IMG/VR virus record: IMGVR_UViG_2595698399_000001
Coordinates: 1 to 64,000 of that record
Source of the DNA: a virus
Taxonomy: Duplodnaviria; Caudoviricetes
Direction: 5' to 3' (one strand)
Length of the DNA: 64,000 nucleotides
A program made the translations under genes and the position numbers. A model generated the notes under the pieces. It saw only the letters and a list, made by a program, of their open reading frames with translations. It had not been told where the DNA came from and did not search any database. This document shows positions 28,585 through 42,424 of the stretch, one piece after another (positions within the stretch are counted from its first letter, which is position 1; every line of letters starts with the position of its first letter).

Positions 28585-28604
28585 GACTAGTTTGTATTAA
28601 TTAG

Positions 28605-28676: not shown

Positions 28677-28678
28677 AG

Positions 28679-28710: not shown

Positions 28711-28735
28711 TTATATATGTATTTGATAGTGTTTC

Positions 28736-29642: not shown

Positions 29643-29672
29643 AAGTAAAGTTTTTAAGATTTTTGATAGTGT

Positions 29673-29963
29673 TTACGCCCCGAATCTGCTCTTTTGAATA
29701 CTCTCGGCTATACTAAGACCTTCTTCAAGGTTCTTTACCTCTATTGTCTTAGAGATTTCTTTGTCGAAGCTGTAAGGGATTGCTCTTTTTAATTCAGTAA
29801 GCTCTCTCTTTGCCGTTGCGATTGCTTTCTTAGTCTCTAAGATTGAAGAGTCTGCTTGAAGAGATGCCTCTTGCGCTCTAAATTGTAATTGCTCTGTCTC
29901 TACATCTTTAGAAGATTGAGAGATTAAATCGATGTACTTTTCTGATTGTGCCTTGTTTGCCAT
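29673..29963 (-). CDS. coiled-coil protein, paralog of 28736..29008
   Basis: 96 aa, helical, shares motifs with its paralog. Confidence 0.65.
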   Translation of the reverse strand: MANKAQSEKYIDLISQSSKDVETEQLQFRAQEASLQADSSILETKKAIATAKRELTELKRAIPYSFDKEISKTIEVKNLEEGLSIAESIQKSRFGA

Positions 29964-30107
29964 AATTAATTTTAGTACGATGCTCTACAGCTTTGATTAT
30001 TAATTGATTTTTGTTTGTATGTAAAATATTAAAGGTGTTCTGTTTGGTCATATGGTTCTTTGAACTATTATCTACCCGTGTCTCCCCTAATACCCCCATT
30101 GTATTGT

Positions 30108-30554
30108 TTAATATACTTTGCTTATCCTTTCAATAGCTTCTTTACACTCTATCTCTAATGCTAATTTAGAGGCCTCTGTACCCTTCCAATTCGCTGAATC
30201 GTCGTGTATTATTTGAAGGAACTCCCAAACAATTACTGGATAACCTTTATACTCGTCTTTAAGGTATATATCTAATTCGGGTAAAGGCTTGGACTTATCT
30301 ACCGTTGATATCTTTACACCTGCCAATGAGTAAAGACCCCCTCTATTGTTTAACTCCCCATAGTCCAACCCATCTAACATACATCTACCTACAGCGCACA
30401 TTCCTCCGCCTTCTGCACGGTATTTGCAAAAATTAGATCCCTTGCTCTCTACACCCCTTCTACTCAAATCCTCGGAGTAGTATTGTACAGTCTCGTTTAA
30501 CAATCTTACCATGTCTTCTTTAGACCTTGCGGTTTCTACTTTTACTTCTGACAT
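30108..30554 (-). CDS. hypothetical protein, paralog of 31380..31799
   Basis: ETVQYYSEDLSRR...C.Y...G.MCAVGRCM...LQ..HD..NW. Confidence 0.7.
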   Translation of the reverse strand: MSEVKVETARSKEDMVRLLNETVQYYSEDLSRRGVESKGSNFCKYRAEGGGMCAVGRCMLDGLDYGELNNRGGLYSLAGVKISTVDKSKPLPELDIYLKDEYKGYPVIVWEFLQIIHDDSANWKGTEASKLALEIECKEAIERISKVY

Positions 30555-30574
30555 CTCTTAAATTTTAATATTAG

Positions 30575-30646
30575 TACTCTCTATAGGATTCGAACCTATG
30601 TTTTTCGGATGAAAACCGAATGTCCTTACCGCTAGACGAAAAGAGC
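30575..30646 (-). tRNA. tRNA-Glu(UUC), copy B (identical to copy A)
   Basis: Base-for-base identical to 28605-28676. Confidence 0.9.
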
Positions 30647-30653
30647 TTTGTAC

Positions 30654-31052
30654 TTATTGTTTTACCCAATCACCTTTACCTTTATCTTTGAAGATGTATA
30701 GCCTGCCCATAATATCATATGCACTCCCACCGCAGTAGTTCTCTTGCTCCCACTCTGTCCAATAATGGTAACCGCTGTCGTAGCTATCTTGAAGAGACTC
30801 GTACCCATTCTCTTTAGCCATTTTCTCGGCGTCAGATCGGTACTTTATGTACATTGTGTCATGGAATAGGTAACCCTTATCCATACCCTCTCCTGTTACG
30901 TCGCAACGTCTTGGATACAGCCTAGGTTCATTGGTTCCTTCTGTAATATTACGACGCTTCCAGTCTTCCAATTTTGATTCCAACTCTTCTATAGCAAAGG
31001 CTACGGAAGATATGGAGTATATTATCATTTCTATCAACTGTCTTTTAATCAT
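30654..31052 (-). CDS. hypothetical protein
   Basis: 132 aa; RCDVTGEGMDKGY, YWTEWE. Confidence 0.6.
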   Translation of the reverse strand: MIKRQLIEMIIYSISSVAFAIEELESKLEDWKRRNITEGTNEPRLYPRRCDVTGEGMDKGYLFHDTMYIKYRSDAEKMAKENGYESLQDSYDSGYHYWTEWEQENYCGGSAYDIMGRLYIFKDKGKGDWVKQ

Positions 31053-31089
31053 AATTTCCCTAGGTTTTGGATAGTGAATAGGTCTCCTT

Positions 31090-31383
31090 TTATAGACCAG
31101 TTATTTTTATATATTGCTTATACTCTTTTCCGGACTTCTTACTAGTCCTAAGAATGTAGTAACTACCCCTAGTACTTTTATACACGGGGTACTCAACACC
31201 TTTCACGTCCATGGTGTATTTGGTCTTTGTAGCTTCGGATGCAGATTTACCACCTCCTACTTTTACTATTTTGTCACCTTGTACCACATAGGTAGGCTCT
31301 GTACTTTCTTGTGCAGACGCAACTATTGTTACAAATACTAATGTCAGTACTAATATTAACGATAACCTTTTAACTCTTCTCAT
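31090..31383 (-). CDS. secreted hypothetical protein
   Basis: Signal-peptide-like N-terminus (ASA-Q); YPVYKSTRGSYYILRTSKKSGKEYKQY. Confidence 0.6.
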   Translation of the reverse strand: MRRVKRLSLILVLTLVFVTIVASAQESTEPTYVVQGDKIVKVGGGKSASEATKTKYTMDVKGVEYPVYKSTRGSYYILRTSKKSGKEYKQYIKITGL

Positions 31384-31799
31384 AACTCTCCTTTTTCTAT
31401 ATCTGATTTAATTTGATTTAACTTTGCCGACCCCATTCTCGAAAGTCCTCTCCCTTCCCAATTAAGACTTTGGTCATGTAAACTTTGCAGAGACATCCAA
31501 AAGGTCATGTTTACACCTCTGTACTCATCCTTTAAGAGGGTGTCTAATTTCTCATCTTGCTCTTCAACTTCTACATTACGGAATATCTCTAAAGAAGTTA
31601 ATTCGCCCTGTGTGTTAAGGTCTTCAAATGGTGCGTCATCTCGCATACATCTACCCACAGCACACATATTCCCATGAGGAGTCTTGTATAGACACATGAA
31701 GTTTTCGTCGAGCGCCCTTCTACTTAAGTCCTCGGAGTAATACTTTACAGTTTCGTCTAGTATCTGTAGCTTTTTATCCCTTAATGCTTGGTTGTTCAT
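31380..31799 (-). CDS. hypothetical protein, paralog of 30108..30554
   Basis: DETVKYYSEDLSRR...CLY...GNMCAVGRCM...LQSLHD..NW. Confidence 0.7.
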   Translation of the reverse strand: MNNQALRDKKLQILDETVKYYSEDLSRRALDENFMCLYKTPHGNMCAVGRCMRDDAPFEDLNTQGELTSLEIFRNVEVEEQDEKLDTLLKDEYRGVNMTFWMSLQSLHDQSLNWEGRGLSRMGSAKLNQIKSDIEKGEL

Positions 31800-31833
31800 T
31801 TCGTCCTGTTTTTGATAGTGGATACTTGTTCTT

Positions 31834-32088
31834 TTATACTATTTCCCATGCCTCGTGCAACTCACCGAATGCATAAACTAAACAGTAGTCCTCACCTTCT
31901 AAGTCGTCAGTATCCCAAAAGTTGGTGTTTACGGCTATTTTTTCAGGGTGATAAGCTGCTATAATAGTATGGTCTCCACCATAAAGAGGGTGTTCATACA
32001 AAGATATAGTTTGCCCCTCTCTATTTATAACTTCTGATAATAGTGTAGGATTTAGAGACATTAATTTCTCGTAGCTAATTCTTTTCAT
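31834..32088 (-). CDS. hypothetical protein
   Basis: 84 aa; LYEHPLYGG. Confidence 0.55.
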   Translation of the reverse strand: MKRISYEKLMSLNPTLLSEVINREGQTISLYEHPLYGGDHTIIAAYHPEKIAVNTNFWDTDDLEGEDYCLVYAFGELHEAWEIV

Positions 32089-32112
32089 AACTTGTTTATT
32101 TTTGGGGTTTTA

Positions 32113-32226
32113 TTAAAGATTTGATGTGTTCACTGCTCCCGATAAGATAGCGACCAATAAACTTAATGCAGTTACTACTATAATAACTACCAATACATTT
32201 ACGAATACTTTTTTTGCAAGTTCCAT
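32113..32226 (-). CDS. small membrane peptide (37 aa, MELAKKVFVNVLVVIIVVTALSLLVAILSGAVNTSNL)
   Basis: Read manually; single hydrophobic helix; fits better than the track ORF 32096..32311. Confidence 0.5.
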   Translation of the reverse strand: MELAKKVFVNVLVVIIVVTALSLLVAILSGAVNTSNL

Positions 32227-32247
32227 ATCTTACTATTTTAAAATTAG

Positions 32248-32309
32248 GGGCAATTAGTGGGATCGAGCCACCTACCAAGAGTAAATTCAAGGTGTTACCA
32301 AACATTACC
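32248..32309 (-). ncRNA. miniature degenerate tRNA-like element
   Basis: GGTAAT/ATTGCC acceptor-like stem, TGTT-TGGT-AACA D-like arm, GGTGG-CTCGATC-CCACT T-arm, broken anticodon stem. Confidence 0.4.
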
Positions 32310-32313
32310 ATAT

Positions 32314-32350
32314 AAAAAACCCGTGATAACTGTCAAGGATTACCACGGGC
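32314..32350 (-). terminator. intrinsic terminator after the first early gene
   Basis: Minus-strand GCCCGTGGTAA...TTATCACGGGT-TTTTT. Confidence 0.7.
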
Positions 32351-32393
32351 AAAATGAAAAAAATACTGTTTAATCGTAAACAGCATACCTTAA

Positions 32394-32879
32394 TTATGCC
32401 ATTACAGGCTCTAATACTTCTTTTTTAGCTTCTGCTTTTTTAGCCGCTTCTTTTTTAGCCTTATTAGCTGCCCTTGTTTCAGCCGCTTTTTTAGCTCTAT
32501 CTTTAGCCGCCTTTATTTGTTCAGGAGTTCTCACTTCTGTTGTAGGCTTCGCCACCTCTTTTTTAGCTTCAACTGGCTCTGTGGTCATATCCTTTGCCAC
32601 CTTCAAAGTTCTGTGTAGTGTTTGCAATACGTAGTAAGCCGAGTAAGTTCCTAGGTCTTTACCTTTGTACTTTGAAGTACGAACTGTTTTCTTAAATTTC
32701 TTGAATGCATCGGAATCGTCTCTTATGAAAGTCAATAATTCGATTGCAGGCTCACTTAAGTTTATTTCCTTCTTAAATATTAGTAACATTTTTACACACC
32801 CTCCCAAAGTTTTACCTTCTGCTTTAAGTGCCTTGTTTACATCATTTACATTTTTTTGGTAACTAGATACATTTGCCAT
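32394..32879 (-). CDS. first leftward gene; Lys/Ala/Glu-rich C-terminal tail
   Basis: 161 aa; AAKDRAKKAAETRAANKAKKEAAKKAEAKKE. Confidence 0.7.
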   Translation of the reverse strand: MANVSSYQKNVNDVNKALKAEGKTLGGCVKMLLIFKKEINLSEPAIELLTFIRDDSDAFKKFKKTVRTSKYKGKDLGTYSAYYVLQTLHRTLKVAKDMTTEPVEAKKEVAKPTTEVRTPEQIKAAKDRAKKAAETRAANKAKKEAAKKAEAKKEVLEPVMA

Positions 32880-33538
32880 AACTTTTAATTTTAAGATTAT
32901 TATTTTATTTTATTATTTGATTATTTTGCGTTTCTACGCTTAGGTACTACACAGAATATTCTCTACGTCTGTGTAGCAAGTTGTAATTTCAATTTATTGT
33001 TTATACTTCTATTTTGTCAAATTTTACTCGGTTTGGCTCGTTTTAATATTGCAAAATACTGTTTACATTATTGCCTTTGCTATTGGCTAGTAAAACAGTA
33101 CATAAAACTTATTAAGGTTTTATCGTAGTGCAACACGAAATTGCTAAAATTATCAATTTCAAAGTGTTTTATTACTTTATAAGCACTCAAGTCGTGCCGG
33201 TATAGGAGTGCCAAATATTTTACGGTGGCTTCCACTGGTAACATTCTAAGTTACCCTCCTGACAGTTTCTTATATACCGAAGAACTGCCTTTTCGGTTTT
33301 ATAATTAAAATAGTGTTTATTGTTTGAAATTTAAGGCTGTGCCTACTTTATACAAATTACCCTTGCGTCCTGTTTTAAACGTACACGGTATTTCACCGTT
33401 ATTAAAAAATCAAGTATCTCGATTCTTTCTAACTAATTCGTTAGATTTTAGCAGTTTTAAGGCTGCCACACTTCCGAGGGATTATAAACTACACTAAATT
33501 AAAGAACTTATGTTATAATTAGTTACTTACTAACTACG

Positions 33539-33612
33539 CTACAAATGTATTAAAACAATATTGATTAAAAGCTATTTATTCGACGAACTACCTAAAAATC
33601 GGTTAAACTGTA
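33539..33612 (-). promoter_or_regulatory. leftward promoter copy 1 (TACATTTG -7 box plus upstream direct-repeat element)
   Basis: CTACAAATGTA at 33539-33549 and CGACGAACTACCTAAAAATCGGTTAAAC at 33581-33608, repeated ~238 bp away. Confidence 0.55.
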
Positions 33613-33776
33613 TTTTGTAGACCCTGAGCCAAGTTTTTAGTAGATTTATACATTAAGATACTACTTACTTACTTTTATTGGCAGCTATACACATATACAC
33701 CCTATGATAGGTATTTTCGTCACTTGCTTATCAATATGCTAAAAGAACGTTTGCAGCTTGTTACTCGTTAACTGCC

Positions 33777-33850
33777 CTACAAATGTACGGCGGACTTAGA
33801 GATATTAAACTAAAAATCCGACGAACTACCTAAAAAATCGTTAAACGGTA
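33777..33850 (-). promoter_or_regulatory. leftward promoter copy 2
   Basis: CTACAAATGTA at ~33777-33787 and CGACGAACTACCTAAAAAATCGTTAAAC at 33819-33846. Confidence 0.55.
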
Positions 33851-34024
33851 AAATTGAGGTTTTTGTGGGCTACTATAGGTATTTGCGCACGTGTGCGGGA
33901 TACGTTGTAAAAAAGAAAGGTGGTTTTGTGGGTGGTTTGCGGGGCGGGTTGGTAAGGTCTACCATGTGAATGGCTGCTATTATGATAGTGATATTTTAAC
34001 AGAGTTAGTTATCTGGTAAGCATG

Positions 34025-34132
34025 TGACAGTATGGCAGGTTATGGTGTCAGTTTGTCAGGTGTTGTTATGTGGAAGGTAGAGTCTGACAGGGTGGCAGTA
34101 TGTGGAAGGTATTATATGACAGGGTGGCAGTA
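34025..34132. repeat. short direct repeats TGACAG(GG/TA)TGGCAG x3 and TATGTGGAAGGT x2
   Basis: Seen directly in the G/T-rich part of the strand-switch region. Confidence 0.7.
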
Positions 34133-34562
34133 AAACAATAATTATTTATAGAATAGCAAGCAGCAAATAAATATCCTAATCAAATAAACTATGTTAAACA
34201 GGTATTAAACAGACTTTATTTATAGCAGATTGACCCGTATAAAATGATGCGGAGAAAGTTAAGGAGTTTAATGTAAGTGACTGCAAACCAAGTAATTAAC
34301 AGCCTAGAAAAGCTAAAAACTATACGCAAATTTGAAAAAATGCGAACCCCACCCCGTTAAAAAAATCGGGTTTGCCATAGCAGCGTGAGGCCCGTGGGTA
34401 TAGTATGTCTTAAAACAGAAAATGCAAGAGAACTTCGAAAGTTGGTGCAAAAACATGCATAAAATGGCCCCTAAAGTACGTGACAAACTTTTTACCGAAT
34501 TATTTACTTGCACCCCTCGAAAGATTTTACTACCTTTATATCTCATTTAAACAAGGATTATT

Positions 34563-34856
34563 ATGTCAGATAAATTACTAGGAGCGATCGAATTAAAAAC
34601 TATTAGAATAGATACAGTATTCTACGATTATGAGGGTCAAGATTTAGGAGACGAAGAAGTAAGGGAAAGTATCCTCGGAGGAGACTATGGAGCAGTTAGT
34701 GTTTATGTAAACGACGTCTTAGCATCTTCTTACGGTGACTACTACCACGAGAAGGGTGATGTAGCAGCAGATGCTTTTGCAAGTGGCCTGTTATTTGCAT
34801 TAAACGCCCCAGAAGACTTCGAGATACTCTATACAAATTCAATAGAGGTGTATTAA
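34563..34856 (+). CDS. acidic hypothetical protein (first rightward gene)
   Basis: 97 aa; upstream TACCTTTA -7-like box. Confidence 0.6.
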   Translation: MSDKLLGAIELKTIRIDTVFYDYEGQDLGDEEVRESILGGDYGAVSVYVNDVLASSYGDYYHEKGDVAADAFASGLLFALNAPEDFEILYTNSIEVY

Positions 34857-35061
34857 TAGTGGTAATTTTATAAAATATGGCACGTACATGGGAATCATTC
34901 GGGGAGTTTTGGTCTGAACTATCAAAAGATCAGAGGACGTACTTAAAAGAGTACATAAATAAGAAAACACGACAGGCCGTCGAACAATATAAAGAAAGTC
35001 TCGAATAACAGCTCGAATACTTTTACTATATTTGCACCTAACACTATAAACATTATAAACT

Positions 35062-35208
35062 ATGATTACATTTTTAGTAGGAGTATTGGCCGGAGCGGCA
35101 GGCTTCGCATTAATCTTGAAGAACAACCCTAAATTACAAGCATATTTCAATAGTGCTGCAGACGAGTTGGAGCGAAAGATTGAAGAAAAAACCGGAAAAG
35201 ACATCTAA
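35062..35208 (+). CDS. small membrane-anchored protein (48 aa, MITFLVGVLAGAAGFALILKNNPK..., YtxH-like)
   Basis: Read manually; upstream TATATTTG box at ~35027. Confidence 0.55.
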   Translation: MITFLVGVLAGAAGFALILKNNPKLQAYFNSAADELERKIEEKTGKDI

Positions 35209-35227
35209 AACAAAAATTATTTACAAG

Positions 35228-35263
35228 TAAGTTTTTTTATATCAAAAAAAAGTTGTATATTTG
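35228..35263 (+). promoter_or_regulatory. tRNA array 1 promoter (repeat copy 1)
   Basis: TAAGTTTTTTTATATCAAAAAAAAGTTGTATATTTG; Bacteroidota -7 box TAnnTTTG; repeated at 36705 and 37947. Confidence 0.8.
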
Positions 35264-35282
35264 TATCAAAGCAATAAGATCG

Positions 35283-35360
35283 ATGAAAACAATTATGAAC
35301 ATAGCGACAGATATTAGAACCAAGGGAGTGAAACTCTTGGGGAGGAGCCGTGTACTATAA
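35283..35360 (+). CDS. attenuator leader peptide 1 (MKTIMNIATDIRTKGVKLLGRSRVL)
   Basis: 16 of the first 17 codons are M/K/T/I/A/D/R/G/V, the amino acids of tRNA array 1. Confidence 0.8.
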   Translation: MKTIMNIATDIRTKGVKLLGRSRVL

Positions 35361-35388
35361 TTTCTTTAGATATAAGATGTTTATTACA

Positions 35389-35415
35389 GCCCTCCCCTAA
35401 AAAGGAGGGTTTTTT
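35389..35415 (+). terminator. attenuator terminator 1
   Basis: GCCCTCC/GGAGGGT stem plus U-run, 3 nt before tRNA-Ala; leader GGGGAGG can pair with CCTCCCC. Confidence 0.85.
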
Positions 35416-35418
35416 ATT

Positions 35419-35493
35419 GGGGCTGCATGAACCAAGGCAAGGCGACTTTGATTTGCAATCAGAGTGAGATGGGTTCGATACCCATGAGTTCCA
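35419..35493 (+). tRNA. tRNA-Ala(UGC)
   Basis: Loop TTTGCAA, GGGGCTG start with G3.U70, ATGGG-TTCGATA-CCCAT. Confidence 0.8.
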
Positions 35494-35521
35494 CAATAAG
35501 ATCCCTTACTGACACCAAATT

Positions 35522-35594
35522 GCCCTTGTAGCAAACAGGTTGTAGGCAACCGTCTTTTAAACGGTGGGGCTAGGTTCGATTCCTAGCAGGGGCA
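35522..35594 (+). tRNA. tRNA-Lys(UUU)
   Basis: ACCGT-CTTTTAA-ACGGT; GCCCTTG/CAGGGGC. Confidence 0.9.
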
Positions 35595-35643
35595 CATAAG
35601 TAAATTAGCTTATATAATGGATTATAAGCGAATAAGGTAATAT

Positions 35644-35716
35644 TGGAGTATAGCTCAGCGGTTAGAGCACTCCCCTGATACGGGAGATGTCGTAGGTTCG
35701 AAACCTTCTACTCCAA
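35644..35716 (+). tRNA. tRNA-Ile(GAU)
   Basis: CTCCC-CTGATAC-GGGAG; TGGAGTA/TACTCCA. Confidence 0.9.
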
Positions 35717-35804
35717 CGAGGCGGAAGACTACCGAAAGAAGGAAAAAGGAAAAAAGTTGGACTAAGAGATTGTTTTTACCTCAACTCTATAAAAAGAGGA
35801 ATTT

Positions 35805-35877
35805 GCGTAAGAGGCCATAGTGGAATGGCGCCTGCCTTCCAAGTAGGAGATAGCGAGTTCGAACCTCGTCTTACGCT
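35805..35877 (+). tRNA. tRNA-Gly(UCC)
   Basis: CCTGC-CTTCCAA-GTAGG; GCGTAAG/CTTACGC. Confidence 0.9.
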
Positions 35878-35887
35878 CTTTTAAAAT

Positions 35888-35956
35888 TGTGGGTGGTCGT
35901 GGTGACCAGAGGGCCTCATAAGTCCTTATAGATGGGTTCGACTCCCATACCCGCCA
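35888..35956 (+). tRNA. tRNA-Met (or Ile2) (CAU), atypical short D-arm
   Basis: AGGGC-CTCATAA-GTCCT; 1:72 mismatch; ATGGG-TTCGACT-CCCAT. Confidence 0.7.
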
Positions 35957-36031
35957 CAAAAGTCGTTTCTACACTCTTCGGGATAAAGGGTGTTCGTACG
36001 ACACTCGGCAGTTAATCGACATCTGCCAACT

Positions 36032-36108
36032 GGTCTAATAAGCGTGTTTGGTAACACGAATTGCACTGTCACTGCTCTAAAACGAGGGTTCGAATCCCTC
36101 TTAGACCG
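36032..36108 (+). tRNA. tRNA-Asp(GUC)
   Basis: GCA-CTGTCAC-TGC; GGTCTAA/TTAGACC, G73; GAGGG-TTCGAAT-CCCTC. Confidence 0.8.
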
Positions 36109-36118
36109 CTTTAATTAT

Positions 36119-36192
36119 GCACTAATGACTGAATAGGAAATGGTACTTCATTTGTAACGAAGATAATTCGGGTTCGACTCCTGATTAGTGCT
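36119..36192 (+). tRNA. tRNA-Thr(UGU)
   Basis: Loop TTTGTAA; GCACTAA/TTAGTGC. Confidence 0.85.
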
Positions 36193-36401
36193 CAACATAC
36201 TTAATCCGCCTATCGAGAAGTTTTGAAGCGCATTAGATTAAGTGTTTTCTGAAAAAGGGGCTTAGCGAATACTAGATATCGTTAACAAAGGCCCCTTTTT
36301 ATTTATCAGGATAAAAGTATTGTAATGGAGTTTTGAGTTATGGAAATAAGCTTCTCCACGTTAAAAACAAAAAAGTAGGTGTAGTAATATGCTTACCATA
36401 T

Positions 36402-36475
36402 ACCAGATTAGCTCAGCGGTTTAGAGCAGCTCTTTTACAAGGAGAAGGTCGATAGTTCGAATCTATCATTTGGTA
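36402..36475 (+). tRNA. tRNA-Val(UAC)
   Basis: Loop TTTACAA; ACCAGAT/ATTTGGT; canonical D-arm. Confidence 0.88.
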
Positions 36476-36536
36476 CGACAGTACCTACCACACTTCTAGG
36501 AGAACGTCTCAAAGTGTCCAAGGGTAGGTCTTTTTT

Positions 36537-36607
36537 ACCTCTATAGTTTAAAGGAAGAATACGGCGCTTCTAACGCTATGGTCGGGGTTCGAATCCCTGT
36601 AGAGGTT
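36537..36607 (+). tRNA. tRNA-Arg(UCU)
   Basis: GGCG-CTTCTAA-CGCT; ACCTCTA/TAGAGGT. Confidence 0.88.
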
Positions 36608-36612
36608 CTTAT

Positions 36613-36683
36613 TGGAGTAAGCCTAGGTAGGTTAGCACGTCTTATATGCGTGTGGAGATGGGTTCGATTCCCTCTATTCCAAC
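36613..36683 (+). tRNA. tRNA-Ile(UAU), atypical D-arm
   Basis: CACGT-CTTATAT-GCGTG; TGGAGTA/TATTCCA; GGTTCGATTCC. Confidence 0.65.
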
Positions 36684-36704
36684 TATTTATAAAATAAAAA
36701 GATA

Positions 36705-36740
36705 TAAGTTTTTTTATATCAAAAAAAGTTGTATATTTAC
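36705..36740 (+). promoter_or_regulatory. tRNA array 2 promoter (repeat copy 2)
   Basis: TAAGTTTTTTTATATCAAAAAAAGTTGTATATTTAC directly before the leader ATG. Confidence 0.8.
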
Positions 36741-36743
36741 AAT

Positions 36744-36833
36744 ATGAAAACAAACATGACATACAATAATTTCTCTTGGTATTCGAATTGTAGCTTTAGT
36801 AGCTATAATGTCGAGAGGTTGTACTTGTCTTAA
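36744..36833 (+). CDS. attenuator leader peptide 2 (MKTNMTYNNFSWYSNCSFSSYNVERLYLS)
   Basis: Codons 7-22 are exclusively Y/N/F/S/W/C, the amino acids of tRNA array 2. Confidence 0.85.
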   Translation: MKTNMTYNNFSWYSNCSFSSYNVERLYLS

Positions 36834-36882
36834 AAATATATTCATTTCTTTTATTAATTTTTGATTATTAATTTTGATTTTT

Positions 36883-36917
36883 ACCCTCTTGGTCTTTCAT
36901 AGCTAGGAGGGTTTTTT
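36883..36917 (+). terminator. attenuator terminator 2
   Basis: ACCCTCTTGGT/GCTAGGAGGGT stem plus U-run before tRNA-Tyr; leader GTCGAGAGG can pair with CCTCTTGGT. Confidence 0.85.
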
Positions 36918-36930
36918 GTTTTTTATAACT

Positions 36931-37012
36931 TGCAACGTAAAGCTAGTGGTTCTAGCAGGCTGTCTGTAAAACAGTTCTTGAGAGGGGAGTGGTTCGATTC
37001 CGCACGGTGCAA
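36931..37012 (+). tRNA. tRNA-Tyr(GUA)
   Basis: GCTGT-CTGTAAA-ACAGT; long variable arm. Confidence 0.85.
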
Positions 37013-37019
37013 CAATAAT

Positions 37020-37109
37020 GGAAGAGTAAGCCAAGTAGGTCTACTGGTCGCTGTCTTGAAAACAGTTGGGGTTTAAAAGCCCGTGTGGGTTCGAGCCCCA
37101 CTTCTTCCG
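37020..37109 (+). tRNA. tRNA-Ser(UGA)
   Basis: GCTGT-CTTGAAA-ACAGT; long variable arm; G73. Confidence 0.9.
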
Positions 37110-37114
37110 CATTT

Positions 37115-37199
37115 AGAGAGGTGTCTGAGTGGCTTAAGGTACTACTTTGCTAAAGTAGTGGGGTTAACGCCTCCGAGGGTTCGAATCCCTTCTTCTCTA
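37115..37199 (+). tRNA. tRNA-Ser(GCU)
   Basis: CTACT-TTGCTAA-AGTAG; long variable arm. Confidence 0.9.
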
Positions 37200-37208
37200 C
37201 AAACACAC

Positions 37209-37280
37209 GGCTAGGTAGCTCAGAGGAAGAGCAGGCGCCTGTTAAGCGTCAGGTCGAGATATCGTAATTCTCCCTAGCCT
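37209..37280 (+). tRNA. tRNA-Asn(GUU), non-canonical T-loop
   Basis: GGCGC-CTGTTAA-GCGTC; GGCTAGG/CCTAGCC; T-loop ATCGTAA. Confidence 0.85.
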
Positions 37281-37287
37281 CTTTAAT

Positions 37288-37359
37288 ATGTCTCAGCATA
37301 AGGTATGCAGTCGGTCTCCAAAACCGTACATGGACAAGGTTCGATTCCTTGGGGGCGTG
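37288..37359 (+). tRNA. tRNA-Trp(CCA)
   Basis: CGGT-CTCCAAA-ACCG; CAAGG-TTCGATT-CCTTG; G73. Confidence 0.85.
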
Positions 37360-37439
37360 CAATAAAACAACAGAGCATCCTATAATGTAAAGGAGCCGCC
37401 ATAAAATCCGAGAGAAGGTCTTGGCTGTTGTTTTTTAAT

Positions 37440-37512
37440 GCGTTAGAAGCTAACTTGGTAGAAGCACTGGCTTGAAATCCCAGAGGAGTAGGTTCGATTC
37501 CTACCTATCGCA
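37440..37512 (+). tRNA. tRNA-Phe(GAA)
   Basis: Loop TTGAAAT in a CTGG/CCAG stem; GTAGG-TTCGATT-CCTAC. Confidence 0.85.
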
Positions 37513-37517
37513 CTTAT

Positions 37518-37589
37518 ATCGGAGATCCTGACGGAGAAGGGGCCTGTCTGCAAAACTGCGCTATACCGGTTCAATTCCGGTCTCCGATT
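37518..37589 (+). tRNA. tRNA-Cys(GCA)
   Basis: Loop CTGCAAA; ATCGGAG/CTCCGAT; U73. Confidence 0.8.
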
Positions 37590-37640
37590 CTTATGTTTGT
37601 ATTTTTCGTACCTTTACTACTTAACGTTAAACAAACAACA

Positions 37641-37934
37641 ATGAGAAGAACTACAAGAAAAACTGTGCCAACTAATAAAACTGCGCCTAAGAAAAACGTA
37701 ACAATCAAATCTGATAAGAGTAGTGTTGCAAGTACCAAGGCTAAAAAATACACTGTTAAGACAAGTGGCAAGCTTAAGAAAGAAGAAGAAGCTAGAGGAA
37801 CTAGGGGTCGTAATGACGCCAATAGATCTGCAGCCTTTAAGAAAGATGTAGAGAAGGCCGGAGGTATGAGTGCATATACTAAGAAATTAACTGATGCAAA
37901 GAAGAGGGTCAAGAAGAATCCAACAAGAATCTAA
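37641..37934 (+). CDS. highly basic Lys/Arg/Thr-rich protein (start probably MRRTTRK)
   Basis: Part of ORF 37593..37934; ATG after A-rich AAACAAACAACA and a TACCTTTA box. Confidence 0.6.
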   Translation: MRRTTRKTVPTNKTAPKKNVTIKSDKSSVASTKAKKYTVKTSGKLKKEEEARGTRGRNDANRSAAFKKDVEKAGGMSAYTKKLTDAKKRVKKNPTRI

Positions 37935-37946
37935 TATAAAACAGTA

Positions 37947-37983
37947 TAAGTTTTTTTATATCAAAAAAAAGTTGTATATTTAC
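37947..37983 (+). promoter_or_regulatory. tRNA array 3 promoter (repeat copy 3)
   Basis: TAAGTTTTTTTATATCAAAAAAAAGTTGTATATTTAC directly before the leader ATG. Confidence 0.8.
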
Positions 37984-37986
37984 AAT

Positions 37987-38076
37987 ATGAACGTAACGCT
38001 ATTACATCAAGAGCCCTTAGAACAACTTCGATTACCATCGAGGGTGCCTTATTATGGGATTGATGAACTATCATAG
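37987..38076 (+). CDS. attenuator leader peptide 3 (MNVTLLHQEPLEQLRLPSRVPYYGIDELS)
   Basis: Codons 5-17 are exclusively L/H/Q/E/P/R, the amino acids of tRNA array 3. Confidence 0.85.
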   Translation: MNVTLLHQEPLEQLRLPSRVPYYGIDELS

Positions 38077-38100
38077 TTTACAACGCACAATATCCTATTA

Positions 38101-38136
38101 AGAGCCCCTTTGGTATAAACCATTGGGGCTTTTTTT
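38101..38136 (+). terminator. attenuator terminator 3
   Basis: AGAGCCCC-TTTGGTATAAACCATT-GGGGCTTT plus U-run 4 nt before tRNA-Pro; leader 38038-38062 is complementary to 38088-38113. Confidence 0.85.
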
Positions 38137-38140
38137 ATTT

Positions 38141-38212
38141 CGAGTAGTGACAAAATTGGCACGTGCCGACCTTGGACGTCGGAGAATGCAGGTTCGATCC
38201 CTGCCTACTCGA
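38141..38212 (+). tRNA. tRNA-Pro(UGG)
   Basis: CCGAC-CTTGGAC-GTCGG; CGAGTAG/CTACTCG. Confidence 0.9.
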
Positions 38213-38221
38213 CTTTGATTT

Positions 38222-38296
38222 GCTATCGTCTTCTAAATGGAATAGGAATCCACCCTTTCAAGGTGTGCAATGCGAGTTCAAGTCTCGTCGATAGTA
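38222..38296 (+). tRNA. tRNA-Glu(UUC), distinct sequence from copies A/B
   Basis: CACC-CTTTCAA-GGTG; GCTATCG/CGATAGT. Confidence 0.88.
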
Positions 38297-38342
38297 CGAA
38301 GGTTGTTTGCTAGTATCTCCCAACAAAGTAGAAACTAGACAT

Positions 38343-38414
38343 TGGAGTATGATGTAACGGTTAGCATGACTGGTTTTGAGCCAGTTCGTCGGGGTTCGAA
38401 TCCCTGTACTCCAT
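38343..38414 (+). tRNA. tRNA-Gln(UUG)
   Basis: ACTGG-TTTTGAG-CCAGT; TGGAGTA/TACTCCA. Confidence 0.9.
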
Positions 38415-38425
38415 CTTATAAGAGT

Positions 38426-38499
38426 CCTCCGTTGCGCCAAATTGGAAAGGCGGTCAAGCTGTGAACTTGATTACATGGGTTCGATTCCCATACGGTTGT
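38426..38499 (+). tRNA. tRNA-His(GUG), mismatched acceptor stem
   Basis: TCAAG-CTGTGAA-CTTGA; ATGGG-TTCGATT-CCCAT. Confidence 0.75.
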
Positions 38500-38538
38500 C
38501 CAACACGGGGTAGTGTCATAATGTCATACCCCTTTTAT

Positions 38539-38621
38539 GCCGGAGTGAGTAAAAAAGAGAATGGCAGATCATTGGGTCTTAGAAACCCAGACTTTTGGGG
38601 GTTCGAATCCCTCCTCCGGTA
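38539..38621 (+). tRNA. tRNA-Leu(UAG), atypical (short variable arm, long D region)
   Basis: TGGGT-CTTAGAA-ACCCA; GCCGGAG/CTCCGGT; A73. Confidence 0.75.
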
Positions 38622-38630
38622 CTTATTAAT

Positions 38631-38713
38631 GCATCCATGGTGGAAAGGGCTATACACTACAGGCTTAAAACCTGTCGCCGAAAGGATTGGGGGTTCGAAT
38701 CCCTCTGGATGCA
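38631..38713 (+). tRNA. tRNA-Leu(UAA)
   Basis: ACAGG-CTTAAAA-CCTGT; long variable arm; GCATCCA/TGGATGC. Confidence 0.9.
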
Positions 38714-38720
38714 CTTTCAC

Positions 38721-38792
38721 ACTTCTATAGCTTAACGGAAAAGCGTTCCGCTACGAACGGATAGATTGGGGGTTCGAATCCCTCTAGAAGTT
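38721..38792 (+). tRNA. tRNA-Arg(ACG)
   Basis: TCCG-CTACGAA-CGGA; ACTTCTA/TAGAAGT. Confidence 0.9.
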
Positions 38793-38800
38793 CTTAAACA

Positions 38801-38832
38801 AAAAAAGCCATCTAATTAAAGGTGGCTTTCTT
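38801..38832. terminator. terminator closing tRNA array 3 (probably bidirectional)
   Basis: AAAAAAGCCATCT-AATTAA-AGGTGGCTTTCTT. Confidence 0.7.
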
Positions 38833-38853
38833 ATTTTCAACTGGTGGTTGGTG

Positions 38854-39006
38854 CTAGGCTAATTTGGATTTGCCCCTAATTTTAAAAGATAGGGCATCCT
38901 TCACCTTGCTATTTTTTCGTTTATAAACTCGAGCAGTCGAATCTTCTTTCTTAGAATCCAACTTACTATTCTTCTTACTTTCTATTTTATGGTCTTTATA
39001 TCTCAT
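38854..39006 (-). CDS. small basic protein (50 aa, MRYKDHKIESKKNSK...IRGKSKLA)
   Basis: Read manually; converges on the 38801-38832 terminator. Confidence 0.4.
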   Translation of the reverse strand: MRYKDHKIESKKNSKLDSKKEDSTARVYKRKNSKVKDALSFKIRGKSKLA

Positions 39007-39583
39007 ATCTTATCTCGGGGCTAGGTTATCTATATTCTATTATATCTATATTTATTATCTAATAATATACTTTAGGTAATCCTCTCTGGATATAGCTTCG
39101 CTAAAGAGTAAAACCCGTTAGAGTGATACAATTTAGACGAAAACATATAACTTAATTTGGTTTAGAAGCTTGCGCTCTTTAGTATAAACCTCCTGTTATA
39201 ATGGGAGCCATAAATGGCGGAGGAATTGCCTCTCTTACTCCAAACACTCCTCAGTGTTCCTTCGCTCGAATAACTATCTTAGCACGCCTATCCTTGGCCA
39301 GAACGATATGTAGCCCGACTAACTACTTCCCTATTCGCTAGGTTCTTTATCTTCGGTACTTAGTTTGAGTAAGTCAAACCCTTAGAAACTCTTCGTATGT
39401 AATATGTTGTAAATATAGTAAAAATAAAGCGTGTATGCAAATATACAAATAATTATTTTATACTTTTTTACCCCCCCCAAATAATTTAATTATGTAAAAC
39501 GCTAATAGTCAACAACTTATAAAATAAATTAAAAATAATTGAAAATAAATTAGGTTTAACAGACTTTATGTACTATCTTTGTA

Positions 39584-39814
39584 ATGAGCAAAACAAAAAC
39601 AATTTGTATTATGAAAGATTTTATAGGCGTAGGATTAAAGATTGGAGATAAGGTAGGATTTGTTGTACCGAGGTACAGAACCCTTAAAGAGGGTACTATA
39701 TTAAAACTAGGTAATAAGATGGCCACCATAGGATATCCTGATAGCAAAGGAAAAGAAGTTAAGGTTACTAGATACTACTCACAAGTAGTTTTCGTAGGGA
39801 GTGCCACTAAGTAA
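39584..39814 (+). CDS. small SH3/KOW-like hypothetical protein
   Basis: KDFIGVGLKIGDKVGF...GTILKLGNKM. Confidence 0.6.
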   Translation: MSKTKTICIMKDFIGVGLKIGDKVGFVVPRYRTLKEGTILKLGNKMATIGYPDSKGKEVKVTRYYSQVVFVGSATK

Positions 39815-39843
39815 TCAAATAAAATAATCAAAAATTAATAAAG

Positions 39844-40557
39844 ATGGATAATAAGAAATACGTAGCATACTACAGGGCGTCGACAGAAAGCCAAAGAGAT
39901 GGAATAGGTCTAGAAGTTCAAAAGAGTTCGGTAGAGGCGTTTGTTAAGTCTTACGGCGGAACTATAGTAGAAGAGGTTAGCGAGATAATCTCGGGTGGGG
40001 CCCAAGTTCGAGAAGGATTTGATAAGGCATTAGAACTTTGTAAGAAACACTCTGCGGTATTACTGGTTCACCGCATAGATAGATTATCTAGAGCAGGGTT
40101 TATGACCATAGCAAAGCTAGAGGAGAAGGGTGTTCCTTTTATAGAAGCTGATTCACCTCACGATAGCGAGTTCTCTAAAAACATCAAGTTCTTAATTGCT
40201 AAAGAAGAAAAAGATAAAACTCAGAGAAGGGTAAAAGACGCCTTAGGCCAGATAAAGGCCAATATAGAATCTGACGGATACCATATTACTAAAGCCGGTG
40301 ATCGAATCACTTCTTTAGGCAACCCTCAGAATCTCTCTGATATGGCCAGAGAGCGCTCTAAAGTAATTAGAAAGGCAAAGGCCATTGCTAACGAGAACAA
40401 CCGTAGAGCGTACGCTATGGCATCTAGAATGAAGTCTAACAAGAGTACTTTAAAGCAGATAGCAGATTACCTTAATAAAAACGGATTTGAAACATCTAAA
40501 GGAAATAAATTTTACCCAATACAAGTAAGCAACTTAATCAAATTATATGAAAACTAA
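39844..40557 (+). CDS. serine recombinase (resolvase-type catalytic domain with C-terminal DNA-binding helix)
   Basis: YVAYYRASTESQ (catalytic Ser), EIISG, IDRLSR, TLKQIADYLNKNGFETSKG. Confidence 0.9.
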   Translation: MDNKKYVAYYRASTESQRDGIGLEVQKSSVEAFVKSYGGTIVEEVSEIISGGAQVREGFDKALELCKKHSAVLLVHRIDRLSRAGFMTIAKLEEKGVPFIEADSPHDSEFSKNIKFLIAKEEKDKTQRRVKDALGQIKANIESDGYHITKAGDRITSLGNPQNLSDMARERSKVIRKAKAIANENNRRAYAMASRMKSNKSTLKQIADYLNKNGFETSKGNKFYPIQVSNLIKLYEN

Positions 40558-40729
40558 TATGAAAGTTAATATAGAGAATTTAATCGATAAGAGTCCTAGG
40601 GAGTTGAACATCCTTAAGAAAGAGTATTTAGATAACATGGATTTCGTAAGCGCTTGCGAGGTAAAGAGCTTCGCTAGGCATTGTACAAAAATAAAAATGT
40701 TGGTGAAAAGGGGGGGTCAAGAACAATAA
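40547..40729 (+). CDS. hypothetical protein
   Basis: 60-aa ORF overlapping the recombinase stop. Confidence 0.4.
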   Translation: MKTNMKVNIENLIDKSPRELNILKKEYLDNMDFVSACEVKSFARHCTKIKMLVKRGGQEQ

Positions 40730-40778
40730 AATAAAAGGGTTATCTTTGTAGTGTAACAAATTATAAACAACACAAACA

Positions 40779-41321
40779 ATGGGAAAAGGAATAGCAGCAT
40801 TATCGTACTTACCTAAAGTAGATATTTTATTCCCTGCAGAAAACGCAGCTTGTTCAACTGACGCTCTTAAAGGGGCAGCATTCTTAGTTTCAAAACTACA
40901 AGCAAACGGTACCGCAGACGGAACATACTCTAACTTAATATCAAAAGGTAACTCTCCTTACAGCACATCTAAGTGGACTGTAGTGGTAGCAGACTCAGGA
41001 ACTACATTTACATGTACTTTCGTAGAAGAAGAAACAGTTCAATCAGGGGCTAGCGGTAGATCTGCATTGACTACAAGACGTCCTGTAAGTTTAGTTAGAG
41101 CTACCGGAGGTACTTTCGACTTTAACACAAGGTCAGTATTGGCACTTATAAACTTCATTGAGAAGATGGAGGATAAGGTAGCACAGACAGCCGACGATAA
41201 CGCAGGAGATGGCACTTTAACAGAGCTGACTCTAAGAGGGTTCACACCTTTCGACGCATTTGTTTGGACTATCACTAAGCTAGACGATGTATATACAGTA
41301 GTGTCTACAGAAGGATCATAA
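40779..41321 (+). CDS. hypothetical protein, possibly an abundant virion protein
   Basis: Own TATCTTTG box, A-rich leader, own terminator; Ala/Thr/Gly-rich. Confidence 0.6.
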   Translation: MGKGIAALSYLPKVDILFPAENAACSTDALKGAAFLVSKLQANGTADGTYSNLISKGNSPYSTSKWTVVVADSGTTFTCTFVEEETVQSGASGRSALTTRRPVSLVRATGGTFDFNTRSVLALINFIEKMEDKVAQTADDNAGDGTLTELTLRGFTPFDAFVWTITKLDDVYTVVSTEGS

Positions 41322-41342
41322 TAACATAAACACCAACCAACC

Positions 41343-41377
41343 AAAGAGTTAAGGCCAAAAGCTTTAGCTCTTTTTTC
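41343..41377 (+). terminator. intrinsic terminator
   Basis: AAAGAGTTAAGGC-CAAAA-GCTTTAGCTCTTTTTT. Confidence 0.75.
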
Positions 41378-41415
41378 ATTTGTATATGTCAGGTAAATTA
41401 CTTACCTTTACTACA

Positions 41416-41961
41416 ATGGATGACAAATTAATTAAAAGGAGAGAGCACGAAGGCTTCGTCCATGAGAGGATAACAGAAGATATCTTATTTAAAAGGATGG
41501 CATTAAAGAAGCAGAAAGATTATAAGAAGAAGGTAAGGGTTGCTAATTTAGATTACAACTTCTTGCAGTACTCTTATATGGTAAGGGAGTGGGCTAAGAG
41601 AAACCACAACCTGACAGATAGGCAGATAGGGATACTCTTCTACATATATCCACTACAAATATTTACAGTCCAACAATTTAAAGACGCTATTAAAGAGATG
41701 GGAATAAGTGATTATACTCAGTTCGGAAAATTACGTAAAGAGGGTTGGATAATAGAGTGGGCCAAATCTGAGAGAATAAAGTACTTCGTATTAAGCCACA
41801 AAGGAAACGAGCTAATGAAGAGGTGCCACAAGATGTTCATGTTGGAGGAGGAGATACCAATGAGCGCTAGGAGAAATGTAATAGTGAGGAGTAACAAAAA
41901 AGCAGACGAAGGGTTAATAGGGCTTTTCAAATTATTTAACGACAAAGTAAAAAACAAGTAG
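41416..41961 (+). CDS. winged-helix (MarR-like) DNA-binding protein
   Basis: LTDRQIGILFYI...KLRKEGWI...FVLSHKG; start probably MDDKL. Confidence 0.55.
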   Translation: MDDKLIKRREHEGFVHERITEDILFKRMALKKQKDYKKKVRVANLDYNFLQYSYMVREWAKRNHNLTDRQIGILFYIYPLQIFTVQQFKDAIKEMGISDYTQFGKLRKEGWIIEWAKSERIKYFVLSHKGNELMKRCHKMFMLEEEIPMSARRNVIVRSNKKADEGLIGLFKLFNDKVKNK

Positions 41962-41962
41962 T

Positions 41963-42424
41963 ATGGCAACAGCAAAAAACAGTAAAGCAAAGACAACAGC
42001 AGCGACAAAGGCAGAAGATAAGGTAGAGGCTAGCCACAAAGCTAAGCTAAAGGAGGTAGACAACACTCCGGAGAAGTTAGAAAGTGACAGATTAAGCAAC
42101 ATCGCAAAAACGTGTCACGAGGTGAACCGAGCGTATTGCGAGGGTCATAATGATATGTCACAAGCCCCTTGGGAAGAGGTTCCAGATAATATTAAAAACT
42201 CTGCTATAGACGGTGTTAAGTTCGCACTAGCTAATCCAAAAGCAACATCAAAATCTATGCACGACAACTGGCTTGCGTTTAAGATAGAAGACGGTTGGGT
42301 GTACGGAGAGACTAAAGATATTGAGAAAAAAGAACACAATTGTTTAGTTGCATATGAGGAACTTCCTCTAGCTCAGAGGGTTAAAGACAGTTTGTTCCTA
42401 ACAGTAGTTAGAAGTTTTGAGTAA
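41963..42424 (+). CDS. RyR-domain protein
   Basis: HDNWLAFKIEDGWVYGETKD.EKKEHNCLVAYEELP..QRVKD. Confidence 0.8.
   Translation: MATAKNSKAKTTAATKAEDKVEASHKAKLKEVDNTPEKLESDRLSNIAKTCHEVNRAYCEGHNDMSQAPWEEVPDNIKNSAIDGVKFALANPKATSKSMHDNWLAFKIEDGWVYGETKDIEKKEHNCLVAYEELPLAQRVKDSLFLTVVRSFE

Follow-up and report, generated by a model that had tools for sequence, protein, structure and literature searches.

A stretch of viral DNA of 64,000 nucleotides (nt), positions 1 to 64,000 of the IMG/VR virus record IMGVR_UViG_2595698399_000001 and hereafter called the window, carries 24 transfer RNA (tRNA) genes at 35228-38840 on its plus strand, grouped as three blocks. The order of elements is common to all three: an approximately 35-nt identical promoter-like box, a short open reading frame (ORF), a GC-rich hairpin followed by a T-run, and the tRNA genes, the first of which begins 2 to 7 nt beyond the T-run. 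We consider it likely that these three units are ribosome-mediated (leader-peptide) transcription attenuators, each of which would control one tRNA sub-array. The anatomy of the units, the match of leader codons to array anticodons, the co-variation of leaders with tRNA content, the complementarity between leader and terminator together with its own co-variation, and the predicted RNA folds all point in this direction; among them, the comparative co-variation of leader and array is the strongest support that the sequences offer.

In unit 2, the leader ORF occupies 36744-36833 (plus strand, as do all elements of the three units) and consists of 29 codons and a TAA stop codon (36831-36833), encoding MKTNMTYNNFSWYSNCSFSSYNVERLYLS. 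After the ATG (36744-36746) and the residues K T N M T comes a block of 16 codons (codons 7-22, 36762-36809), TAC AAT AAT TTC TCT TGG TAT TCG AAT TGT AGC TTT AGT AGC TAT AAT, which spells YNNFSWYSNCSFSSYN; the tail VERLYLS follows. Serine is drawn from both of its codon boxes, with TCT at 36774-36776 and TCG at 36783-36785 on the one side and AGC at 36792-36794 and 36801-36803 and AGT at 36798-36800 on the other. An earlier, sequence-only reading of this DNA had proposed an attenuator here from 16 consecutive Y/N/F/S/W/C codons that use both Ser boxes. The sequence reads as it claimed, and all of its coordinates are correct, including that of GTCGAGAGG at 36810-36818. In no frame of the 72,534-bp genome that holds the window, of six searched, is there a longer run of C, F, N, S, W and Y codons than this block (16, with a runner-up of 12), and 100 shuffled genomes yielded such runs of at most 13. 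The unit 2 array can decode 19 of the 28 leader codons, compared to 6 and 3 for the other two arrays, and every one of its tRNAs has a cognate codon within the 16-codon run (7/7, by eye). The leader peptides of the window had no family match in Pfam or PHROG.

Upstream of this ORF lies the unit 2 promoter box (36703-36743), recognized as a threefold repeat and in the alignment of the units. It closes with a -7-like element at 36732-36739, putatively of the Bacteroidota promoter type, and the ATG follows 4 nt later, so close that the mRNA is probably leaderless or nearly so. The window contains the 11-mer at the core of the box at three positions only (35252, 36728 and 37971), each of them ahead of a leader. 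When the three units of the window were aligned, conservation between them was limited to this box and the terminator tail.

Downstream, the putative intrinsic terminator of unit 2 (regions 3 and 4 of the proposed switch, 36883-36924) comprises an 11-bp stem at 36883-36912 and a T-run that extends to 36917 or 36924. This hairpin, which the sequence-only reading had also named as a terminator (at 36883-36917), was classed as terminator-like and folds at -17.5 kcal/mol; the T-run ends 7 nt before the first tRNA gene. Relative to the window, the same stem in Cellulophaga phage Calle_1 carries an A-U pair in place of a G.U pair. The distance from stop codon to T-run is 45 to 57 nt in 14 of a set of 15 units and 81 nt in unit 2.

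The array itself contains all seven tRNAs that had been expected (Tyr, Ser, Ser, Asn, Trp, Phe and Cys), three of them called by ARAGORN at relaxed thresholds only. tRNA-Ser(UGA) at 37020-37110 (Rfam, 39.8 bits with the tRNA-Sec model), tRNA-Ser(GCU) at 37115-37200 (45.5 bits), tRNA-Asn(GUU) at 37209-37281 (48.9 bits) and tRNA-Phe(GAA) at 37440-37513 (52.2 bits) were found under ARAGORN default settings. The three that needed the relaxed threshold are divergent: tRNA-Tyr(GUA) at 36931-37013, tRNA-Trp(CCA) at 37288-37360 and tRNA-Cys(GCA) at 37518-37590. Their cloverleaves are acceptable or plausible, with mismatches; tRNA-Cys reached a sub-threshold 25.8 bits in Rfam, and tRNA-Tyr and tRNA-Trp had no Rfam match at E<=10.

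The sister units repeat this design with other amino acids. Unit 1 (35228-36683) consists of the promoter box, a leader at 35283-35360 encoding MKTIMNIATDIRTKGVKLLGRSRVL, a terminator at 35388-35415, and tRNAs in the order Ala(UGC), Lys, Ile-GAU, Gly, Met, Asp, Thr, Val, Arg-UCU and Ile-UAU, the first of which was called by eye and has a G3:U70 pair. Unit 3 (37946-38840) consists of the box, a leader at 37987-38076 encoding MNVTLLHQEPLEQLRLPSRVPYYGIDELS, a terminator at 38100-38136, the tRNAs Pro, Glu, Gln, His, Leu-UAG (called by eye), Leu-UAA and Arg-ACG, and a final terminator at 38804-38829. Compared at the level of codon and anticodon, leaders 1, 2 and 3 contain 18, 19 and 16 codons that their own arrays can decode, whereas the other arrays can decode 2 to 7. 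The match extends to the split Arg box: leader 1, ahead of an array with Arg-UCU, uses AGA for arginine, and leader 3, ahead of one with Arg-ACG, uses CGA. The matching run of 13 codons in leader 3 is the longest in the genome for its amino-acid set; that of leader 1 is unexceptional alone, because its set covers 42% of codons. Across the three units, a cognate leader codon could be found by eye for 24/24 array tRNAs.

The genome has a G+C content of 38.1%. Parts of its tRNA region are ~95% identical to Calle_1 (Pervagoviridae), and the phage is a Cellulophaga podophage related to Calle_1. An alternative genetic code was considered for it and ruled out, as it has long ordinary ORFs under table 11 and no suppressor tRNA.

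Leader composition and tRNA content in other phages

We recognized the same architecture in at least 21 units from at least 12 phage lineages, all of them phages of marine Flavobacteriia or IMG/VR contigs. Searches of IMG/VR with promoter-plus-start patterns were useful for 3/19 stretches and returned at least 6 loci among 120 matches listed and at least 2 among 119 listed, the remaining matches being unrelated genes. Our automatic unit scanner under-calls where arrays chain across units or tRNAs are missed, and two units, those of contigs L191 and L208, were identified by eye only. The start codon is ATG in 20 of 21 units and GTG in unit 1 of Cellulophaga phage phi4:1. An alignment of four type-3 leaders contained no stretch sufficiently conserved to retrieve relatives. 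At the array starts of three unrelated phages rich in tRNA genes and examined as controls (Klebsiella phage Metamorpho, Mycobacterium phage Myrna and Pseudomonas phage PA5oct), a matching leader ORF was present at 0/11, and no array lay within the stretch of the crAss-like phage cr7_1 that was examined.

Several of the units lie in named phages of other families. In Maribacter phage Panino, a leader beginning MKTQRLHQELEQP precedes Pro, Glu, Gln, His, Leu, Leu and Arg, and another beginning MRAATGIAIIGRTKDK precedes an array that runs Ala, Lys, Ile, Gly and, further on, Asp, Thr, Val and Met. Cellulophaga phages phi4:1 and phi17:2 (Lightbulbvirus) have three units, one of which has a leader beginning MKTNYCTYNNSNWSFSY ahead of Tyr, Ser, Ser, Asn, Trp and Phe. 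In Cellulophaga phage phi10:1 (Assiduviridae), WSYSCFSYSF lies within the leader of an array of Tyr, Trp, Phe, Ser and Cys.

Other phages partition their tRNAs differently, and their leaders differ correspondingly. Unit 1 of Tenacibaculum phage Gundel_1 (Pachyviridae) has a Y/S/C/F/W block lacking Asn codons, and its array (Trp, Phe, Ser, Ser, with Tyr and Cys called by eye) has no Asn tRNA. That tRNA sits in the array of unit 2 (Pro, Gln, Met/Ile2, Asn, Leu), whose leader contains NNLHIQQNNLP; leader 2 has 4 Asn codons, compared to one in leader 1, which lies outside the matching block. Contig L008 has three units: in unit A, a leader beginning MTMNFNIAINKVWGDR precedes Ala, Lys, Arg-UCU, Trp, Ile, Met, Gly, Val, Met, Asn and Asp; in unit B, a leader containing YSYSSLYL precedes Leu, Leu, Ser, Ser and Tyr; and in unit C, a leader containing TFTQRPEQHTPCFT precedes Glu, Pro, Cys, Phe, Thr, Arg-ACG, Gln and His. 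The leader of L099 contains LYLSLSYSLLS, ahead of Tyr, Leu, Ser, Ser and Leu. L104 has a Y/L/S/F/C-type leader with an added Asp codon, and its array includes tRNA-Asp. The leader of L191, with R, I, Q, N, M, A, F, W and Y, precedes Ala, Phe, Ile, Gln, Arg-ACG, Trp, Tyr, Asn and Met. Further IMG/VR contigs with the architecture are L006, L072/L080, L118 and L208. Taken across these phages, the codons for Asn, Trp, Thr and Asp, and AGA as distinct from CGN for Arg, move with their tRNAs between arrays.

We quantified this correspondence by permuting leaders and arrays within each phage with two or more units, five phages in all. Of 864 within-phage permutations, the observed assignment was the single best, with 192 matched codons compared to 179 for the next best, and the margins were wide for each phage. 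Hand counts of individual codons agree: at least two Asn codons were present in 6/6 leaders whose array contains tRNA-Asn, compared to 1/15 of those without it, and a Trp codon was present in 7/7 leaders whose array contains tRNA-Trp, compared to 2/14 of those without it.

Two features of the relatives stand apart from this correspondence. At L008 6087-6759, the leader of array B ends in TAG, and array B contains a tRNA with anticodon CUA (an amber suppressor, labeled 'Pyl' by ARAGORN). Read-through of this TAG would bring the ribosome into the 5' arm of the terminator, and leader B could be a suppressor-tRNA sensor in a phage that may recode TAG. In addition, genes resembling HNH endonucleases lie between the leader and terminator (or first tRNA) and the remainder of the array in L008 (4031-4460) and L046 (4462-4968), which points to a part for homing endonucleases in the shuffling of tRNA cassettes.

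Predicted RNA switching and its alternatives

In the mechanism that we infer for unit 2, transcription would start from the dedicated promoter, and a ribosome would be translating the 29-codon leader as the polymerase nears the hairpin and U-run. Were the Tyr, Asn, Phe, Ser (UCN and AGY), Trp and Cys codons decoded quickly, the ribosome would reach the tail and stop codon and cover region 2 (36810-36822), allowing the terminator to form and leaving the unit 2 tRNA genes untranscribed. Slow decoding of any codon of the block would stall the ribosome within 36762 to ~36800, where it would mask region 1; region 2 would then be free to pair with the 5' arm of the terminator, and polymerase would read through into Tyr-Ser-Ser-Asn-Trp-Phe-Cys and probably also into the coding sequence of a small basic protein at 37593-37934. 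If the leader were not translated at all, region 1 would pair with region 2 and transcription would terminate. Since the sensed codons are those read by the controlled tRNAs, such a unit would act as a negative-feedback homeostat of decoding capacity, in which a low supply of one charged tRNA species yields more of that tRNA. Possible causes of low supply would include a mismatch in codon usage, host shut-off, host defenses that cleave tRNAs and amino-acid starvation.

The pairings that this scheme calls for can be found in the predicted folds. Region 1, the anti-antiterminator strand (36766-36775, within codons 8-11), pairs with region 2 in the minimum-free-energy (MFE) fold of the free RNA, so that the resulting hairpin (leader nt 23-32 with nt 70-79) overlaps the regulatory codons. 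Region 2, the 5' strand of the antiterminator, begins with GTCGAGAGGT, is complementary to the terminator 5' arm when G.U pairs are allowed, and has 9/10 nt paired upstream in the free MFE fold. That GTCGAGAGG could pair with the terminator had been noticed from the sequence, and RNAduplex indeed predicts a duplex of 36810-36819 with 36884-36893 at -11.1 kcal/mol; 2/200 shuffles of the leader's own tail equaled it. With a promoter box, an ORF with a cognate block, a terminator, a 1:2 hairpin and an antiterminator all present, the reading of unit 2 as a leader-peptide attenuator is supported at the level of predicted structure. Among 18 units, the cognate leader was the best partner of its own terminator 5' arm in 8 and among the top three in 12. 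The paired motifs vary by unit, as in Gundel_1 units 1 and 2, phi4:1 unit 2 and L008 unit A, and as predicted pairings these between-unit changes in the 2:3 sequences are compensatory.

We next consider how the folds respond to a ribosome. In 15/15 units the MFE fold of the free RNA consists of the leader hairpin and the terminator, and the terminator is retained in 15/15 when a ribosome sits at the stop codon. For full-length RNA of unit 1 at equilibrium, the probability of the terminator is 0.00-0.07 with a stalled ribosome versus 0.99 once the ribosome has passed. Units 2 and 3 do not switch at equilibrium, and a switch there would need to be kinetic. For unit 2, where equilibrium folds are uninformative because the terminator always prevails, only the folds of nascent RNA discriminate. 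We computed these before the terminator 3' arm exists, with the ribosome at successive codons. In unit 2, the predicted probability that region 3 is paired is 0.83-0.87 with the A site at codons 3-17, 0.72 at codon 19 and ~0.4 from about codon 21. The probability that the 5' arm pairs with region 2 falls in unit 1 from 0.95 within the matching block to 0.05-0.3 from codon ~17, and in unit 3 from 0.91 to ~0.44 from codon ~15. By these folds, unit 2 would switch at codon ~19-21, unit 1 at 15-17 and unit 3 at 11-15, in each case where the matching block ends.

RNA sequencing covers the region in four runs, available as assembled contigs with one depth figure per contig, and so without transcript ends or levels; the contigs break at the three repeated promoter boxes. 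The leaders and tRNAs are covered, the terminators of units 1 and 2 are bridged, and contigs span the unit 2 leader, its tRNAs and the basic-protein gene at 37593-37934. At leader 3, short contigs of high depth (37962-38060, X2; 37962-38065, X3) are followed by contigs of 8- to 9-fold lower depth. This drop is at most a weak hint of attenuation, and the high-depth contigs end ~70 nt before the T-run. The passages on tRNAs in a Cellulophaga-podovirus transcriptome study concern host tRNA genes (PMC5335546).

Several observations weigh against attenuation. The leader of unit 2 ranks 9/18 among leaders as a partner for its terminator 5' arm, bearing out the earlier view that its antiterminator is the weakest, and low ranks were likewise obtained for phi4:1 unit 1, L008 unit B and L118. 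Equilibrium MFE folds switch in 5/15 units only, and full-length unit 2 RNA keeps a terminator probability of 0.86-1.00 even with a stalled ribosome. The unit 2 terminator is bridged by RNA contigs from three runs, which could reflect either common read-through or DNA carry-over. Of the seven unit 2 tRNAs, the divergent Tyr, Trp and Cys do not pass Rfam. Nor is the codon match perfect: the blocks contain mismatches in window leader 1 (N), phi4:1 unit 2 (T), L008 unit A (F), Gundel_1 leader 2 (H and TTA-Leu), L191 (H, C, V and K) and L208 (K and T), Panino has AGA codons with no Arg-UCU tRNA, phi10:1 has AGT with no Ser-GCU, and the full N/F/S/W/Y/C leader of L118 is followed by just tRNA-Phe and a tRNA fragment. 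The model moreover presumes that transcription and translation are coupled in Bacteroidota and that a nearly leaderless ORF is translated.

Some of these points would suit a leader that senses decoding and acts through another output, either the processing or stability of the tRNA precursor, with the hairpin and U-run as a processing or stability element, or the access of Rho. The lack of an equilibrium switch in unit 2 and 9 others of the 15 units, a hairpin that RNA contigs bridge, and the non-specific antiterminator of unit 2 are all compatible with this. We nevertheless regard it as unlikely, because the stems are canonical and GC-rich with runs of 5-8 T directly 5' of the first tRNA, leader tails and terminator 5' arms covary in their complementarity (with the cognate pair first in 8/18), the folds place the switch where the codon block ends, and Rho-type polarity predicts an opposite and less sensible response. 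Less probable still is that the codon block is read without a ribosome, by tRNAs in a T-box-like contact or by a protein that binds the RNA, the open frame being incidental. In 21 units a start codon opens the reading frame of the block, the distance from stop codon to T-run is regular in most, and composition is kept where order is not, as decoding would predict. A search of 25000-42000 with Rfam at E<=1 found no T-box, no leader of the His, Trp, Thr or Leu families, and no match of any family in the three leader intervals; these results stand against a proposal that draws its appeal from the regulated genes being tRNAs, which T-box systems sense directly, and from the lack of a visible ribosome-binding site.

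It might also be argued that the short ORFs encode functional micropeptides, or nothing, and resemble the tRNA set by coincidence and shared cassette ancestry. Many units are indeed kin by descent, and so not independent (the type-3 units of Panino, phi4:1, L006 and L208 among them), and the run of unit 1 is unexceptional by itself. Shared ancestry does not readily explain why differing partitions of the tRNAs come with correspondingly differing leaders (L008, Gundel_1, L099, L104 and L191), why the observed assignment is the best of the 864 permutations, or why the runs of units 2 and 3 are the longest genome-wide; the peptides, for their part, match no family and are conserved in composition only. 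We give this explanation the least credence of all, marginally below ribosome-free reading, and retain leader-peptide attenuation as the probable function of the units.

Within attenuation, we tentatively entertain a broader reading, which is possible though we would not favor it outright: that the cassettes form a phage-borne sensor and repair circuit. Each leader would sample every tRNA of its array codon by codon, and the array would come on when any of them runs short, for example through an anticodon nuclease, another tRNA-depleting defense or host shut-off. The cassettes would be exchanged among unrelated families of Flavobacteriia phages, and the leader re-written whenever a tRNA is gained, lost or moved.

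Array anatomy and neighboring genes

Two of the window's arrays contain hairpins with a long stem and a T-run, one between Thr and Val in array 1 (36255-36305) and the other between Trp and Phe in array 2, where a structured spacer at 37362-37437 includes an inner hairpin at 37408-37424. Each may act as an internal terminator or a processing signal, or represent a small RNA; codons for the tRNAs that lie beyond them are still present in leaders 1 and 2. Beside the second of these, the tRNA-Trp gene of the window (37288-37360) is unrelated in sequence to its Calle_1 counterpart (L001 4129-4197), whereas the flanks are ~95% identical, which looks like the replacement of a single gene inside a conserved array.

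In unit 3, the tRNA with anticodon UAG at ~38536-38620 was missed by ARAGORN both by default and with -ps90. With -ps80, the program reported a gene of undetermined type at 38539-38622, and the Calle_1 counterpart is likewise annotated 'undetermined'. 'Leu' tRNAs with this anticodon in Panino (L002 4972-5045), L006 (minus strand, 1516-1591) and L008 (6200-6274) are 74-76 nt long, a length that leaves no room for the long variable arm expected of tRNA-Leu.

Two small protein genes adjoin the units. A 48-amino-acid membrane protein (phrog_11666) is encoded at 35062-35208 on the plus strand, directly 5' of unit 1. In Panino, a phrog_11666 homologue is directly followed by the type-1 leader, which has no promoter box of its own and may therefore be read from the upstream transcript. 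After tRNA-Cys, a small and very basic protein is encoded at 37593-37934 on the plus strand; it has no Pfam or PHROG match and is annotated as 'structural protein' in Calle_1. As no terminator lies between this gene and the next promoter box, it may be co-regulated by the unit 2 attenuator. Within the phage collection searched, relatives of the 48-amino-acid membrane protein and of the basic protein (97-113 amino acids) were found only in Calle_1-3 and Panino.

Outside the arrays, the window has two further genes for tRNA-Glu(UUC), at 28604-28676 and 30574-30646 (minus strand), each scoring 63.7 bits in Rfam, so that the Glu of unit 3 is the third. A transfer-messenger RNA (tmRNA) lies at 26805-27164 on the minus strand (Rfam, 87.6 bits). 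Panino and cr7_1 also have a tmRNA inside or adjoining a tRNA cluster, and the presence of a ribosome-rescue RNA near leaders that depend on stalling may perhaps be no coincidence.

Relation to known attenuators and phage tRNA clusters

Current ideas hold that phages carry tRNAs to compensate for codon usage, to replace host tRNAs that have been degraded or to evade anticodon nucleases. If the units are attenuators, the tRNA arrays of these phages would be expressed on demand, group by group, according to the speed of decoding. Leader-peptide attenuation, known from amino-acid biosynthesis in cells with one to three amino acids sensed, would then also reach the tRNA pool itself, take in six to ten amino acids and operate in viruses. 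If the sensor and repair reading were also true, this would be the first case in which tRNA genes are controlled through translation of the codons that their products read, and phage tRNA carriage would gain a demand-driven rationale. Because leader composition predicts array content, it can serve as a sequence-only marker that aids the annotation of divergent tRNAs and the assignment of transcription units. The units would also be compact natural sensors for the decoding of chosen codons, with possible use as reporters.

Full-text searches, judged from listings and abstracts, turned up no description of leader peptides or attenuators ahead of phage or cellular tRNA genes.

The closest known relatives of the proposed mechanism are the leader-peptide attenuators of enterobacteria, such as ilvGMEDA and ilvBN (Ile, Leu, Val), thr (Thr, Ile), his, trp, leu and pheA. 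With these the phage units share a promoter-proximal short ORF rich in regulatory codons, mutually exclusive 1:2, 2:3 and 3:4 pairings, an intrinsic terminator and a fold set by ribosome position, the pairings and the fold being predicted here. As in the multivalent members of the group, a single leader would sense several amino acids. The cargo differs: attenuators usually control genes for amino-acid biosynthesis or aminoacyl-tRNA synthetases, whereas the phage units carry tRNAs (seven in unit 2) rather than biosynthetic enzymes. They would also sense six to ten amino acids at once, match their arrays at the level of the anticodon, including the split Arg, Ser and Leu boxes, and are phage-encoded, with a putative promoter of the Bacteroidota type and an ORF that starts almost leaderless and lacks a visible Shine-Dalgarno sequence. 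The pheST attenuator of Escherichia coli comes nearer in that a leader peptide controls a component of the decoding apparatus, but it is cellular, controls a synthetase and senses one amino acid.

T-box riboswitches resemble the phage units in tuning genes of translation supply to the charging of specific tRNAs through a choice between terminator and antiterminator. They bind uncharged tRNA through one specifier codon and do so free of the ribosome, whereas the phage units have an in-frame ORF of many codons. Arrays of tRNA genes are common to these phages and to other lytic phages with tRNA clusters (T4-like phages, mycobacteriophages and jumbo phages), but in Metamorpho, Myrna and PA5oct none of the array starts noted above had a matching leader upstream. 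The class of mechanism is therefore already known; what would be new is a cargo of tRNA genes, a reach of six to ten amino acids in which split codon boxes are told apart, and a modular viral context.

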